Shown one piece after another: positions 18,433 through 30,550 of a DNA stretch of 32,000 bases. Within the stretch, counting starts at the first letter, position 1; every line of letters starts with the position of its first letter. A program made the translations under genes and the position numbers. The DNA lies in the NCBI RefSeq assembly GCF_000008625.1, contig NC_000918.1:1020001-1052000 (forward strand), given 5' to 3'. Source of the stretch: Aquifex aeolicus VF5 (lineage in GTDB: Bacteria; Aquificota; Aquificia; Aquificales; Aquificaceae). Below the pieces are notes generated by a model, which saw only the letters and a list, made by a program, of their open reading frames with translations, ran no database searches and was not told where the DNA came from.

Positions 18433-19127
18433 AACTTCGCCTCTTGATGAACATAATTGATGAAGTAACGAGAAAGTACAACGAACTACTACACAACTAC
18501 AAAGTTCTTTTGAAAGAAACGGAGTTCGAAGCTACCCACGATCCTCTCACAGGCTTGTTCAACAGAACCGCACTCCAGCAACTCTTTAAATACGAAAAGC
18601 AAAGGGCGGACGTTTTGGGAAAAAAGGTGGCCTTCCTGTTTATAGACCTTGACAACTTCAAGGAAGTTAACGATAGATACGGACACGCTGAGGGGGACAG
18701 GGTACTGAAGGATATAGCCCGCATAATAAGAGAAAGCATCAGGGGGACGGATATAGCGGTAAGGATAGGGGGAGACGAGTTTTTGATAATACTGCCCAAC
18801 AGCAACATAGAAACTGCAAAGAGGGTAGGGGAAAGGATAAAGAACGCAATAGAGGAGACCTTTAAGGATTACGGAATTTCTGCGAGTTACGGTATTTCTA
18901 TTTACCCCAATGAAGGTGAAACCTTAGAAGAACTCATTAACTTAGCTGACAGCAGAATGTATCAAATGAAGAGGGAAAAGAAGCTAAAGACCGGGCGGTA
19001 TCTTAAAGGGAACGTTCATAAGGGGATTTTCCTCCTCCTGCTTCACTATCATTGCGTAAACTCCGAAACAGTACTTTCCTACTTCAACAACTCTTCCAAC
19101 TCTTATACCTGCGTCCTCCAGAATTAA
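18417..19127 (+). CDS. GGDEF diguanylate cyclase
   Basis: HDPLTGLFNR, a canonical RIGGDEFLIILP active site and ADSRMYQMK. The start overlaps the FIST ORF end. The last ~45 codons have no domain and run antisense into the methyltransferase gene. Confidence 0.85.
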   Translation: MREDVKLRLLMNIIDEVTRKYNELLHNYKVLLKETEFEATHDPLTGLFNRTALQQLFKYEKQRADVLGKKVAFLFIDLDNFKEVNDRYGHAEGDRVLKDIARIIRESIRGTDIAVRIGGDEFLIILPNSNIETAKRVGERIKNAIEETFKDYGISASYGISIYPNEGETLEELINLADSRMYQMKREKKLKTGRYLKGNVHKGIFLLLLHYHCVNSETVLSYFNNSSNSYTCVLQN

Positions 19128-19616
19128 TCCAACTTCCCATTCGGAGTAAACTTCTTCCGGCGGGGGTCCTTTGTCCCTCTCCTCCTTCTTCCAGTCTATA
19201 ATGGCAAGGTAGGCAAAGGGCTTTGCCACTCTCTTCAACTCTTCTAAGAACTTAAGTGGTTCGGAAAGCTCGTGAAAGGTAAAAGCCATGAATATAAAGT
19301 CGACTGTGTTATCAGGAAGGGGTATTTTATTCTCTTCAGACTTGAGGACTTCCACGTTTTTCAGACCGAGTTTATTTACCTTTTCCCATGCGTAATTTAC
19401 CATTTCCTCCTGAACGTCTATGGCGTAGACCTTTCCCTTTTCTCCTACCATCTTAGAAAGGTAAGGGAGGTAAAATCCCGCTCCCGTTCCTACGTCAAGG
19501 ACAGTCATACCTTCCTTCAGTCCGAACTCTTTTAAAACTTTCTCGGGGTCAAAGAGTTCTAAACGGGAAGGGTCATCTAGCTTCTTTATTTTTGAAGGGT
19601 CAAACTTGTGTGCCAT
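18984..19616 (-). CDS. class I SAM-dependent methyltransferase
   Basis: Motif I VLDVGTGAGFY, followed by VYAIDV and DFIFMAFTFHE. 210 aa. Confidence 0.8.
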   Translation of the reverse strand: MAHKFDPSKIKKLDDPSRLELFDPEKVLKEFGLKEGMTVLDVGTGAGFYLPYLSKMVGEKGKVYAIDVQEEMVNYAWEKVNKLGLKNVEVLKSEENKIPLPDNTVDFIFMAFTFHELSEPLKFLEELKRVAKPFAYLAIIDWKKEERDKGPPPEEVYSEWEVGLILEDAGIRVGRVVEVGKYCFGVYAMIVKQEEENPLMNVPFKIPPGL

Positions 19617-19632
19617 GATATTATTCTACTTT

Positions 19633-20666
19633 ATGCAAACTCCCCTTTACTATGTCCATAAACACCTGAAGGCAAAGTTCACGAACTTCGCAGGCTGGAC
19701 AATGCCACTCCAGTACACCTCAATAATAGAAGAAGTAAGGGCTGTAAGGGAAGAGCCGGAGTGTTTGACATCTCCCACATGGGCAGACTACTAATAGAAG
19801 ACCCTGAGAAAAAACTCCAGTACTTTACCACCAATAACTTGGATAAACTGAGCGTGGGAAAGGTTCAGTATAACCTCCTTCCAAACGAAAAGGGAGGAAT
19901 AAAGGACGACGTCACCGTTTATATGCTCTCAGAAATTGAGTTCTTTCTCTGCGTGAACGCCGCAAATAGACAGAAGGTAATAAATTGGCTCTCTCCTCAC
20001 TTAAAGTTAAGGGATTTATCTGGTGAACTTGTCCAGATAGCCCTTCAGGGCCCGAAAAGCGAGGAAATAATTTCTAAGTTTTATCCGGTCTCCGATTTAA
20101 AATACTACAGGTTCAAGGTTTTTGATAAAACCATTATTTCAAGAACCGGTTACACGGGTGAAGATGGATTTGAGATATACGTCTCTCCCGAAGAGGGAAA
20201 GGAGTTATTTTTAGAACTCGTAAAACTCGCAAAGCCCTGCGGACTCGGAGCGAGGGACGTTCTCAGAATAGAAGCGGGACTCCCACTTTACGGAAATGAG
20301 CTCTCCGAAGAAATAACGCCGATAGAGGTAAACCTTGAGAAGTTCGTGGACTTCTCAAAAGAATTCATAGGAAAGGAAGCGATGCTGAAAAAGAAAGTAA
20401 AGAAAAAGCTCTTTGGTCTGGAGCTGACGGAAAAAGGAATACCGAGGAAAGGCTACAGAGTGTTTAAAGGAGATAGAGAAATAGGCTGGATTTCGAGCGG
20501 TACTTACTCTCCGACGCTTAACAAAGGCATAGCCCTCTGCTTTGTTGATATTGAAGAGAGGAAAGAAGGCAACGAAGTGGAAATCGAGGTAAGGGGCAGG
20601 AGAGTTAGAGGGGTATTGAGAAAGTATCCCTTCGTGAGGACACCAGCGGGAAGGTATCAGAAATGA
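19633..20666 (+). pseudogene. gcvT: glycine cleavage system T protein (aminomethyltransferase) with an apparent 1-nt deletion
   Basis: MQTPLYYVHKHLKAKFTNFAGWTMPLQY...AVRE is in frame 1. The conserved continuation AGVFDISHMGRL is in frame 0. One purine appears to be missing in gggaagagccgg at about 19753-19755. The rest of GcvT is intact to the stop at 20664-20666. Confidence 0.75.
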
Positions 20667-20880
20667 GCAAAGGTAATTAAATCTGATACACTTCCCGCAA
20701 AGTGTCCTTCGCTGTCCCCTTTTGGGGAACAGGATTTACTACCCGCTATCTCCCAAAGAACCGGGAGACTCGCAGGATACCTGAATAAATTTACCTTCAC
20801 AGGTCTTGACAATTTGTCTAACCAGTTCCTTAAACTCAAAAACTCTTCCCTTACTTTCTTACCTAACGCTTTTATCGCTA
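20640..20880 (-). ncRNA. candidate omega RNA (reRNA) overlapping the tnpB 3' end
   Basis: Placed by analogy with characterised TnpB systems. Three consecutive hairpins are visible at 20749-20768 (tctccc/gggaga), 20712-20732 (ctgtcccc/gggga-cag) and 20646-20698. There is no covariation or expression evidence. Confidence 0.3.
20646..20698. repeat. imperfect inverted repeat / hairpin at the tnpB 3' end (candidate element right-end structure)
   Basis: gcgggaaggtatcag (20646-20660) pairs with ctgatacacttcccgc (20683-20698) as 8 bp + 6 bp stems with a small internal loop. The 22-nt loop contains the gcvT TGA. Confidence 0.6.
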
Positions 20881-22096
20881 AATTTAGTGCTCCGTTCAAA
20901 TCCGCATTAAATACCTTTTTTAGTCTTCGGTCTCTAAAAAGACCTCTCTTTATCCTTCTTCCTTCAAACTTCAGCTTCTTAACTTCTCCTTCAGGTATTT
21001 CTTCCTTCAAAACTTCTATGTTCCCGCTTACCGACGAAACCTTTGAAGTCCAGCTCTCGTCTTCTTTTACCACTTCTATACCACAAAGCTCACACTTGTA
21101 CTCTATCATTTTCACAAGCTCTCCAAGTGGTATAAACCTGAACTCCTGATTGAACCTCGCTCCCTTTTCGCTATCCTTTTGATATTCTTCGTTCAAAGAA
21201 TTCGGAATTATTACTCTCCCTATCCCTCTCTCAAGGCAAACTCTCACTATCAGGTTTGCCACCTGATGGAAAAATCCCTTTATCCTCTTTTTCCTGTATC
21301 TCCACAGTTTTCTTTCAAGTCTTTCTTTTCCCTCACTCCTTAGTTTCGCACTTAGTTTGTTTACCCACTGGTTGAACGACTTTAATGGATTTCCGTCAAC
21401 TATAAAACTTCTTAAATTTTCGTCATTTGAAATGCAGGAAACGAGGTTTCTTACTCCTAAGTCTATACTCAACCACTTTTCCTTTAGGAGTTCCTTTTGA
21501 GCTTTCGGAACTTCGTAGCTTATCCTGAATATAACCTCTGTATCTTCGTACCAAGTTATCTTTACATCTCGGATATTTATCCCCTGAGGAATTTTCACCT
21601 TTACAGCTCCGAAAGAAATTCCGAGTCTAACCACTATGGAGTTTTCCCTTCTTCTCTTTAGTTTTCTTTTGTCCACTAACATATTGGGATTTGTAGGAAC
21701 TGTGAATTTATGAACCTTCTTGAGTTTTCTTGGTCTCGGGAGGAAAGCTCTTTCTCCCTTCTTCCATTTTTCAAGGACGCTTTTTACTTCTTTTGAAACC
21801 TGACGAGCGAGAGCTTTTACCGTATCTGAACCTATCTCTTTTTCCCAGAGTTCTTTTAGCTTTTCCCTGTAGCTTTTAATTTTCTCGTTTTCAAAAGGTA
21901 GGTTTTCCTTTCCCTTTACGAACTTCTCAAGGAAAGAAACACTCAGGAAAGGTTTTACGTCTTTCGTGTTTTTATAGTATTCAAGCAAGCAAAGGTATAG
22001 AAGGTTTTTGAATTGTTGAAAGGTTAGGCTCGCTCTTTTGAGTTTATTTAGAACGCTTCTCTTTGTAGTTGATATTTCAAGTGTCAGAGTTTGCAT
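20657..22096 (-). CDS. tnpB: IS200/IS605-family accessory protein TnpB (OrfB, RuvC-like RNA-guided nuclease family)
   Basis: Start at ATG 22096 (MQTLTLEIS...). RuvC-I SID(212)LGVRN, RuvC-II EDE(347)SWTSK and RuvC-III FNAD(399)LNGALN are present. The canonical zinc-finger CxxC...CxxC positions read VSSVSG...FRDRRLKK, with no Cys. 479 aa. Confidence 0.85.
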   Translation of the reverse strand: MQTLTLEISTTKRSVLNKLKRASLTFQQFKNLLYLCLLEYYKNTKDVKPFLSVSFLEKFVKGKENLPFENEKIKSYREKLKELWEKEIGSDTVKALARQVSKEVKSVLEKWKKGERAFLPRPRKLKKVHKFTVPTNPNMLVDKRKLKRRRENSIVVRLGISFGAVKVKIPQGINIRDVKITWYEDTEVIFRISYEVPKAQKELLKEKWLSIDLGVRNLVSCISNDENLRSFIVDGNPLKSFNQWVNKLSAKLRSEGKERLERKLWRYRKKRIKGFFHQVANLIVRVCLERGIGRVIIPNSLNEEYQKDSEKGARFNQEFRFIPLGELVKMIEYKCELCGIEVVKEDESWTSKVSSVSGNIEVLKEEIPEGEVKKLKFEGRRIKRGLFRDRRLKKVFNADLNGALNLAIKALGKKVREEFLSLRNWLDKLSRPVKVNLFRYPASLPVLWEIAGSKSCSPKGDSEGHFAGSVSDLITFAHF

Positions 22097-22160
22097 CCTT
22101 CGATATACCTGATATATTTTGATAACGAAATTGTCAACTGTTGTGGAGGAGGAAGAAGTA

Positions 22161-23009
22161 ATGGAACTTCTCCTGTTTATCTGGGGAATAGTGGTGGGCA
22201 CAGTATTCTCAACGGTGGGAGCTGCAGGTGGGATACTCGCGGGCTTCGGGCACATATCCCTTTTTGGCATAAACGTAGCAAACTCAGTCAAAGTCATGAA
22301 CCAGATACTCGTGATAATATCCACACTCATTTCCGTTCCCACATACTGGAAACAGGGAAGGTTAATCTTTATTCTCGGAGGACTGCTCGGTATCGGTAGT
22401 GTCATAGGAGCTATCGTCGGTTCTACACTCTCCTACACCTACCTTTCGGGTTTAAAAGCCTACAAATTCCTTTTTGGTATTTTTACGCTAATAGTAGCCT
22501 TTAAAGTTTTCCACGACGTGTTTGTAAAGGAAAGAGAAAGAGTAAAGAGCATAGACAAAGATTTGAAGGAAGGCAAGGAAAGAAGGGTAAAGGTGCTAAA
22601 GAGAAGCATGAAAGAAGTAGAGTTTTCCTTTCTCGGGAAGAAATACTCTTTCAATCCAATTCTCCCCGTTCTGGCCGGCTTTGTGGTTGCGGTTATATCC
22701 TCCGCCCTAGGCGTAGGAGGGGGCTTCCTACTAGTTCCCTTTATGGTTTCCGTTCTGAAAGTTCCCATGTACCTTGTTCCGGGAACGAGTGCTTTTGCAG
22801 TTTTAATAACGACTACGATCAGTATGCTCAACTACATAAAGCTCGGGGCTGTGGTTTACTGGAAGGTAATCTTTGCGGAAGCACTCGGGGTTATAGTGGG
22901 CTCTTTCATAGGCCCCCACATTTCCCACATTCTGGGCGAAAGGAGGCTCAGACTTTTACTCGGCTTCATACTCCTCGGTATAGGACTTAAGTATATCTTT
23001 ATAAGATGA
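22161..23009 (+). CDS. TauE/SafE (DUF81) family anion permease
   Basis: ATG 22161 is preceded by GGAGGAGG at 22146-22153. The sequence MELLLFIWGIVVGTVFSTVGAAGGILAGFG and a second VGGGFLLVPFM repeat are typical of the two-fold TauE topology. Confidence 0.8.
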   Translation: MELLLFIWGIVVGTVFSTVGAAGGILAGFGHISLFGINVANSVKVMNQILVIISTLISVPTYWKQGRLIFILGGLLGIGSVIGAIVGSTLSYTYLSGLKAYKFLFGIFTLIVAFKVFHDVFVKERERVKSIDKDLKEGKERRVKVLKRSMKEVEFSFLGKKYSFNPILPVLAGFVVAVISSALGVGGGFLLVPFMVSVLKVPMYLVPGTSAFAVLITTTISMLNYIKLGAVVYWKVIFAEALGVIVGSFIGPHISHILGERRLRLLLGFILLGIGLKYIFIR

Positions 23010-30474: not shown

Positions 30475-30550
30475 TCCGGGGTAGCTCAATCGGCAGAGCG
30501 GGTGGCTGTTAACCACCTGGTTGGGGGTTCGAGTCCCTCCCCCGGAGCCA
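30475..30550 (+). tRNA. tRNA-Asn (GTT), CCA encoded
   Basis: The acceptor stem tccgggg/ccccgga, D-arm tagctcaatcggcagagc, anticodon stem ggtgg/ccacc with loop ctGTTaa, and T-arm ggggg-ttcgagt-ccctc are all present. Discriminator g followed by cca. Confidence 0.9.

Follow-up and report, generated by a model that had tools for sequence, protein, structure and literature searches.

An intact but probably stranded, tnpA-less IS607-family derivative with a zinc-finger-less TnpB between gcvT and tauE of Aquifex aeolicus

We analysed a stretch of 32,000 nucleotides of the Aquifex aeolicus VF5 genome (the window; contig NC_000918.1, positions 1,020,001 to 1,052,000 of the forward strand, numbered here from its first base), in which the tnpB gene aq_1459 lies on the minus strand between gcvT and tauE. 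The gcvT gene, on the plus strand, ends at position 20666 and overlaps the tnpB stop codon by 10 nt, and tauE, which encodes a TauE/SafE exporter on the same strand as gcvT, starts with an ATG at position 22161. A sequence-only reading of the window had proposed that a solo tnpB without tnpA, squeezed into about 1.5 kb, fills the whole of this gap, and had called for its ends to be defined. Comparison with related loci mapped both ends and bore out the proposal, giving an element of ~1507 bp whose left end (LE) abuts the ribosome-binding site of tauE. We conclude that the locus very probably holds a non-autonomous derivative of IS607, intact but stranded, which has lost tnpA and kept LE, tnpB and the omega-RNA that reaches its right end (RE).

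The protein is listed in RefSeq as WP_164930721.1, a 479-aa "RNA-guided endonuclease InsQ/TnpB family protein" of Aquifex aeolicus. The original GenBank entry for aq_1459 (AAC07400) is a "neutral protease" of 582 aa which starts from an upstream ATG (window 20657-22405, minus strand), and its upstream extension, which overlaps tauE in antisense, is almost certainly untranslated. The 479-aa protein matched the Pfam families PF01385 (OrfB_IS605; 54.7 bits against a cutoff of 30.5) and PF07282 (Cas12f1-like_TNB; 40.1 bits against 26.3), and the NCBIfam family NF040570 (guided_TnpB; 122.9 bits against 100). An AlphaFold2 model built with 25 homologs reached a predicted local distance difference test score (pLDDT) of 79.9 and a predicted TM-score (pTM) of 0.72. 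Foldseek placed AsCas12f at the top of the matches to this model (E 4e-15), followed by ISDra2 TnpB, ISFba1 TnpB and mimivirus Fanzor2, and gave these Cas12f, TnpB and Fanzor2 matches a probability of 1.00; the protein thus has the WED-REC-RuvC-TNB fold. The motifs SIDLG, EDESWTSK and NADLN, which the sequence-only reading had recognised (the last as FNADLNGALN), are found in the translation at residues 210, 345 and 397, respectively. The open reading frame (ORF) is free of frameshifts and internal stops, and all 27 residues shared without exception by the 25 aligned homologs are retained in it. Over codons 1-420, the ratio of nonsynonymous to synonymous substitution rates (dN/dS) was 0.055-0.073, at a dS of 1.7-2.6, a low ratio that indicates purifying selection on the TnpB protein. 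The aq_1459 TnpB is a candidate RNA-guided nuclease, as had been proposed, with family scores, fold and a conserved 3' guide-RNA scaffold all in agreement, and cleavage by it is predicted.

The RuvC triad of the protein consists of D212, E347 and D399, which were invariant in the 25 homologs, but its Glu is not the canonical one. The canonical RuvC-II Glu (in the 'mEDL' of Cas12f) aligned with P297 in 'IIPNSL', at a position that the clade does not conserve. E347 precedes the position of the first zinc-finger cysteine by exactly six residues (E347-x6-S354), which is where the alternative glutamate, Ealt, is defined (PMC10711439). TnpB clades with a rearranged RuvC-II and a compensating glutamate were described by Altae-Tran et al. 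2023 (PMC10691335), and in the cryo-EM structure of Fanzor2 a Glu shifted by ~50 residues belongs to the Mg-binding triad (PMC11832414). The D-E-D triad, which had been called intact, is, as aligned, preserved only in its rearranged Ealt form: the two aspartates and a glutamate are there, but the canonical glutamate is gone. A nuclease-dead protein like TldR, which the missing canonical Glu might have indicated, was ruled out by the invariance of E347 at the published Ealt position.

We then compared two sets of homologs, the 120 closest in the database (from Aquificota, Fusobacterium/Leptotrichia and Desulfofundulus) and the 150 best of the 1452 representative clusters, of 50% identity each, that an exhaustive profile search returned at E<=1e-30. 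Ealt was found in 115 of the 120 homologs and in 148 of the 150 clusters, and the NADxN motif in 114 and 125, respectively. In the RuvC-I motif (DLG, within SIDLG), the D and the G were invariant in the 25 homologs and the middle residue was L, V, I or M, never proline, so that the combination of DPG and Ealt that marks Fanzors and pro-Fanzors is not found in this protein. R381 was also invariant, and it aligned with an arginine of AsCas12f which, counted along the 8J12 alignment, would be the catalytic R383. By sequence and model, the aq_1459 TnpB appears to belong to a large Ealt D-Phi-G lineage which as a whole is without the four-cysteine (C4) finger. The contig scan also returned cyanobacterial relatives of 26-32% identity, from Okeania, Potamolinea, Arthrospira and an uncultured cyanobacterium (loci L023, L024, L025, L027 and L029). 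It was in this phylum that the IS607 'pro-Fanzor' Ealt TnpBs were described (PMC10711439).

TnpBs typically, but not always, have a C4 zinc finger between RuvC-II and RuvC-III. To locate its positions in the aq_1459 protein, we aligned sequence and profile with AsCas12f (8J12); TSQRCSECG fell opposite TSKVSSVSG and FKCRACG opposite FRDRRLK. The equivalents of the zinc ligands Cys1, Cys2, Cys3 and Cys4 are S354, S357, D389 and L392, respectively, so that the protein has no C4 finger and all four cysteines are replaced, just as had been read from the sequence. The possibility that the cysteines are present but shifted was ruled out by the unambiguous profile alignment and by the translation, which has six cysteines in the whole protein and none among residues 340-400. 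A different CELCG, which had been pointed out just upstream, is indeed present (C335 and C338), at the end of a predicted alpha-helix (residues 324-337). It was rejected as a replacement zinc site, since it terminates this helix and its second cysteine is not conserved, C338 being confined to the closest (Aquifex-type) sequences among the 25 aligned homologs. In the AlphaFold model, which supplies the structure prediction that had been suggested for this region, a plain beta-hairpin takes the place of the second zinc knuckle. The first CxxC after [YWFH]TS was found in none of the 120 closest homologs, a set in which the full C4 pattern was not scored, and in 1 of the 150 clusters, of which none had the full C4 pattern. 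Because of these counts, the loss of the finger is, across the sequences compared, a stable trait of the whole lineage, and neither a lesion nor anything peculiar to the aq_1459 copy. An adaptation to heat was ruled out as its cause, since the relatives from Fusobacterium and Leptotrichia, which we take to be mesophiles, are also without the finger. The loss of the zinc finger in large branches of TnpB has already been recorded (PMC10691335).

The 3' end of tnpB overlaps a region whose DNA is conserved throughout the clade (20821-20638) and which would be transcribed into the scaffold of the omega-RNA, or right-end element RNA (reRNA). The scaffold combines a nested stem with a short hairpin and with a long terminal hairpin which closes at GGACAC...GGTGTCC. 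RNAalifold on 13 loci predicted 27 pairs, 14 of them with compensatory changes, and the proportion of paired cells was 94.7%, against 83.2% in shuffled alignments (reached in 0 of 500) and 38-48% when the partners were slid. The minimum free energy of the RNA was -80 kcal/mol (z = -7.7). Compensatory changes were also noted by eye in an extra short hairpin (in the window, CTGT(T)CCCC/GGGGACAG), and G-U pairs placed the constraint on the tnpB-sense strand. Over codons 421-479, dS collapsed to 0.33-0.45 and dN/dS was ~0.62, and residues 441-479 were modelled with very low confidence and are predicted to be disordered. Because of this collapse and this low confidence, the tail of the ORF appears to be constrained as RNA and not as protein, and residues ~441-479 probably have no structure of their own and read through the omega-RNA region. 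These comparisons point to a structured omega-RNA of ~185-200 nt which overlaps the 3' end of tnpB and ends at RE. The window scan matched no Rfam family to this 3' RNA, and our search of the literature on A. aeolicus and TnpB found nothing specific to the locus. The predicted guide starts at position 20637 (TCACGAAGGGATACTTTC...); in every copy it is the first non-conserved sequence past the right end, and its length is assumed from other TnpBs. It matched only itself within the window, in which pattern search and blastn found neither other copies of the element nor other targets of the guide.

The right end reads G(G/A)TGTCC in the window and in all 14 related loci with a complete 3' end (GGGAGTCC in L034). 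Its last base in the window is at position 20638, and the flanks beyond are unrelated. The left boundary was set by alignment to L034, L035 and L016, the last of which, a locus of an Aquifex sp. metagenome-assembled genome (MAG) with 75% identity in the portion of TnpB that it contains, has the same left end as the window (AAACAGTTGAC...). Across copies, the dinucleotide CC stands at both junctions (...CTCC/LE and RE...GTCC/flank), and terminal inverted repeats and a target duplication are absent. IS607 recombines by a 2-bp crossover without target duplication and without terminal inverted repeats (PMC6188088), and the CC at both junctions therefore fits such a crossover. A TTGACA-17-TATCAG pair at 22137-22109 on the minus strand, which had been noted as promoter-like, is present as described. 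L016, L034 and L035 share its TTGAC box and 17-nt spacing, and Persephonella-type copies have TTGACAC. A scanner for consensus promoters leaves the pair out, its -10 hexamer being without the final T. The coordinates of all the features are collected in Table 1.

Table 1. Features of the aq_1459 element and its flanks, in window coordinates
Feature	Position	Strand	Details
tnpB coding sequence	20657-22096	-	479 aa; ATG at 22096, stop codon 20657-20659
Whole element, IS607-family derivative deleted for tnpA (as reconstructed)	20638-22144	-	~1507 bp (one CC counted); LE, tnpB, omega-RNA/RE
LE with promoter-like site	22097-22144	-	-35 TTGACA 22137-22132, -10 TATCAG 22114-22109
Predicted omega-RNA (reRNA) scaffold	20638-20836	-	Overlaps tnpB 3' end; conserved core 20821-20638
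Predicted guide	20618-20637	-	TCACGAAGGGATACTTTCTC; DNA just outside RE, within gcvT 3' end
Left-flank CCTCC, candidate target and transposon-associated motif (TAM)	22145-22149	-	Includes crossover CC 22145-22146; plus strand is the GGAGG ribosome-binding site of tauE
Element-encoded gcvT tail	20638-20666	+	Last 8 codons and stop, (R)TPAGRYQK*, from right end
Outward promoter-like site	22090-22118	+	TTTGCA-17-TATATT with TG, toward tauE; 9/12 matches

No transposase gene was found near the element in the window, in which the TnpA gene that IS607 carries upstream of tnpB is thus missing. Relatives with the same ends encode a serine-recombinase TnpA (L003, L005, L007, L026 and L016). Hydrogenothermaceae and Persephonella MAGs have a tnpB of 57% identity whose start is overlapped by the gene of a 210-aa TnpA with a MerR helix-turn-helix (HTH) and a Resolvase domain, as in L003, and the order in L016 is LE-tnpA(Ser)-tnpB. 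L035 keeps ~70 nt of the 3' end of tnpA as a deletion scar (L035:151-255), of which there is none in the window or in L034. Two other copies without tnpA keep its first codons (L010:4786-4905 and L008:28-168). Because these remnants differ (the first codons in L010 and L008, the last ~70 nt in L035), tnpA was apparently lost independently several times in the lineage. A look for a tnpA elsewhere had been suggested; among the best 120 of 264 serine-recombinase matches, no cognate TnpA came from A. aeolicus. The window copy is, by comparison with these relatives, a deletion derivative of an IS607-family element and not a complete member of that family. The absence of a Y1 transposase, an integrase or a second insertion-sequence gene had been remarked upon; there is indeed no transposase gene near the element, but the absence of a Y1 enzyme is beside the point, the cognate enzyme being a serine recombinase. 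The alternative that had been offered of a non-autonomous element mobilised in trans holds in its first part, but mobilisation in trans is unlikely at present, as no cognate A. aeolicus TnpA was among the matches listed.

Comparison of the left flanks showed that CTCC is present in 16 of 17, usually as CCTCC. In 11 of the 12 TTGACAC-type copies it adjoins the conserved end without a gap, and in the five AAACAG-type (Aquifex-type) copies, the window included, 2-4 nt separate it from the conserved AAACAG. A CAT stands 4-13 nt further upstream of CTCC/CCTCC in 10 of the 17 copies, an arrangement that would place the element immediately upstream of the ribosome-binding site of a divergent gene. 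Examples of these flanks are window 22145-22163, L004:5900-5922, L012:5495-5515 and L028:4970-4991. In most copies the flank appears to be the ribosome-binding site of a divergent neighbour read on the opposite strand, and this regularity suggests that CTCC/CCTCC may be an anti-Shine-Dalgarno TAM. A broader proposal is that the Aquificota IS607/TnpB lineage targets the Shine-Dalgarno complement (CTCC/CCTCC) both for recombination and as TAM and inserts a few bases from the ribosome-binding site of a divergent gene, possibly aided by a bidirectional promoter in LE, with a TnpB that would be a zinc-independent Ealt nuclease active at ~85-95 C, which we take to be the growth range of A. aeolicus. 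We offer this proposal tentatively and regard it as possible but doubtful. That the elements favour positions next to ribosome-binding sites is in itself a small, testable observation on target choice by IS607.

The closest relatives of the aq_1459 protein (76-78% identity; P0002 and P0004) are encoded between rplI and rpoN and adjoining murC, and the identical protein was found in three A. aeolicus-like assemblies, at the gcvT-tauE locus and at no other. Eight related loci occur in a single Persephonella MAG, and the chromosome of Desulfurobacterium thermolithotrophum DSM 11699 has three paralogs, with more cluster representatives from another D. thermolithotrophum assembly; a TnpA homolog also carries a locus tag of DSM 11699 (Dester_0266). 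In the history that we propose, the element would have been inserted between the end of gcvT and the ribosome-binding site of tauE by a serine recombinase, with a 2-bp crossover at CC (GG on the other strand). Transcription would start at the left-end promoter, and the 3' part of the transcript would give an omega-RNA of ~200 nt, with the scaffold from 20836 or 20821 to 20638 and the guide from 20637 downwards. The complex of TnpB and omega-RNA would recognise the left-flank TAM, probably CTCC/CCTCC, and then the match to the guide (CCTCC+TCACGAAGGGATAC...), a combination that would be found at the empty gcvT/tauE site. D212, E347 and D399 would cleave this empty site, which would favour retention or homing of the element. 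In A. aeolicus today the copy is probably immobile, because no cognate TnpA was found among the matches listed, and its nuclease is probably without a genomic target; we regard it as a selfish element and not as one recruited by the host.

Recruitment by the host had been the other alternative offered by the sequence-only reading, with the protein as a domesticated nuclease or regulator. On this account, the host would keep TnpB as an RNA-guided regulator or defence nuclease, like TldR, and the loss of the finger would be part of its repurposing. The lack of an adjacent tnpA, the apparently single copy of the family in A. aeolicus and the intact ORF and RNA structure are all what it would predict, and non-mobile TnpBs with active-looking RuvC sites are known (PMC10691335). 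We nevertheless hold it to be quite unlikely, since the loss of the finger and Ealt are found throughout the lineage, including relatives that are present in several copies and associated with a transposase, both ends are intact down to the crossover dinucleotide, the guide is simply the adjacent flank with no second match in the window, and the catalytic residues, unlike those of TldR, are not inactivated. The contexts of P0002 and P0004 ruled out a conserved synteny, and because these closest relatives occupy unrelated loci, there is no sign of domestication.

An inert fossil, in which the gene and the RNA are no longer functional, whether for want of activity without the finger or for want of expression, and have not yet decayed, is also improbable in our view. 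Such a state would agree with the failure to detect a cognate A. aeolicus TnpA among the best 120 of 264 matches, with the disorder predicted for the C-terminal 40 residues and with the lack of an obvious selection, there being no empty site to cut without excision. It is opposed by the retention of all 27 invariant residues in an ORF without frameshifts or internal stops, by the intact promoter-like LE, by omega-RNA helices none of which is broken and which show compensatory substitutions against L034 and L035, and by the same finger-less architecture in copies that clearly proliferate. The frame implicit in the sequence-only reading, a solo tnpB of the IS200/IS605 type that a Y1 TnpA would mobilise in trans through single-stranded hairpin ends, we consider highly improbable. 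The name of the Pfam family, OrfB_IS605, and the long hairpin at the right end recall that type, but neither a Y1 HUH TnpA partner nor hairpins at both ends were found: every transposase found beside members of the clade is a MerR-HTH/resolvase serine recombinase, no sub-terminal hairpin to match was read in the sequence of the left end, a serine-recombinase crossover would account for the identical CC at the two junctions, and the G-U pairs of the right-end hairpin place its constraint on the sense strand, as for an RNA.

Several points weigh against our own account of a stranded but intact IS607 derivative. We found no demonstration of activity in the literature for any TnpB without a zinc finger, and a paper on Aquificales non-coding RNAs is silent in its main text on the aq_1459 locus. 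The low dN/dS spans the whole divergence between elements and not necessarily the period since the arrival of this one in A. aeolicus. The left boundary could be off by 1-3 nt (the right one is exact), the TAM comes from the flanks only, and L016 has CCTCC with no divergent start codon found adjoining it. The single-copy status and the absence of TnpA are drawn from protein-database listings in which only some entries are named, and the scan of genome contigs returned relatives but not A. aeolicus, so that its copy number comes from protein listings. A search of metagenomes for the unoccupied gcvT/tauE site gave no matches.

The insertion would have replaced the last few native codons of gcvT, giving GcvT a chimeric tail. 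In-silico removal of the element, leaving one CC, gave ...TTC GTG AGG AGG AGG AAG AAG TAA TG..., in which the reconstructed gcvT ends in RRRKK* and its stop codon overlaps the ATG of tauE. Such a junction is plausible for a native operon and would also be the target of TAM and guide, with ...TTCGTGAGGAGGAGG...TAATG as the predicted unoccupied site. The outward promoter-like site in LE is a lead only, as shuffled sequence gave a background of ~2.3 promoter-like sites per 2 kb; outward hexamers of the left end could drive the neighbouring gene after insertion. In Persephonella-type left ends (L009:5922-5965), the reverse complement of ..CATTATAAA.. reads TATAAT on the outward strand.

Upstream of the element, gcvT is split in the window into a 62-aa ORF (19606-19794) and a 301-aa ORF (19761-20666), both on the plus strand. 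In L032, a near-identical assembly, there is one more G at 19754 and GcvT is intact, with 344 aa, and L033 is exactly as the window; the split reflects either a true frameshift or an error in the reference from the sequencing of a homopolymer. Window and L032 also differ in the FIST/GGDEF region (~17256-19127), by single-base indels at 18031, 18620 and 18982 and a substitution at 18022, and the gene calls there are of 391, 75 and 126 aa in L032 and of 270, 135 and 236 aa in L033. A tRNA-Asn (GTT) at 30475-30550, on the plus strand, was the sole Rfam or ARAGORN match in the window.

The TnpB annotation, the rearranged Glu, the loss of the finger in large branches, the association with IS607 and the existence of copies without tnpA were already documented. 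What is new is local: the exact ends, the structure of the omega-RNA with its predicted guide, the history of tnpA deletion, the chimeric tail of GcvT and the regular CTCC/CCTCC in the left flank. The annotation of aq_1459 is thereby corrected and completed with its element ends, omega-RNA, predicted guide and probable TAM. If active, the protein would be a compact, zinc-independent nuclease from a hyperthermophile, and thus possibly a thermostable enzyme for editing or diagnostics, as well as a test case for the role of the zinc finger in TnpB and Cas12.

Comparison with AsCas12f and ISDra2 TnpB (PDB 8J12, 7WJU, 8H1J and 8EXA) showed the same WED-REC-RuvC-TNB fold (Foldseek E 4e-15 to 1e-9, TM-scores of 0.5-0.66) and the same conserved aspartates of RuvC-I and RuvC-III. 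However, these proteins have the canonical Glu and a Zn-binding C4 finger, neither of which is found in aq_1459, and Cas12f, unlike the aq_1459 TnpB, is CRISPR-associated and acts as a dimer. With TldR and other immobilised, nuclease-dead TnpBs, the locus shares a tnpB between host genes, without an adjoining transposase gene and with a 3' guide-RNA region; it differs from them in its intact catalytic residues, its retained ends, its mobile relatives and the lack of a conserved partner gene or synteny.

The likeness is closer to the Ealt TnpBs, also described as RuvC-II-rearranged (RIIr) (PMC10691335; PMC10711439; Fanzor2, PDB 9B0L), which have lost the canonical RuvC-II Glu, have an invariant Glu ~50 residues downstream and NADxN in RuvC-III, and are, like the relatives of aq_1459, associated with IS607. 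The search pattern of those papers requires the CxxC...CxxC that is absent from aq_1459, and its motif is DLG whereas that of Fanzors and pro-Fanzors is DPG. Comparison with the IS607-family systems of TnpB and reRNA (e.g. ISXfa1 TnpB, PMC10711439; IS607, PMC6188088) showed the most features in common, namely a serine-recombinase TnpA as partner (here in the relatives), identical junction dinucleotides without terminal inverted repeats or target-site duplication, an omega-RNA/reRNA that overlaps the 3' end of tnpB with a guide just outside the right end, and a TAM, as inferred, that includes the crossover dinucleotide. The aq_1459 copy differs from these systems in having neither tnpA nor a zinc finger, in its crossover dinucleotide, which is CC on the tnpB-sense strand where GG is reported for IS607 and ISXfa1 (PMC6188088; PMC10711439), and in its probable TAM, which is CTCC/CCTCC instead of GGG.

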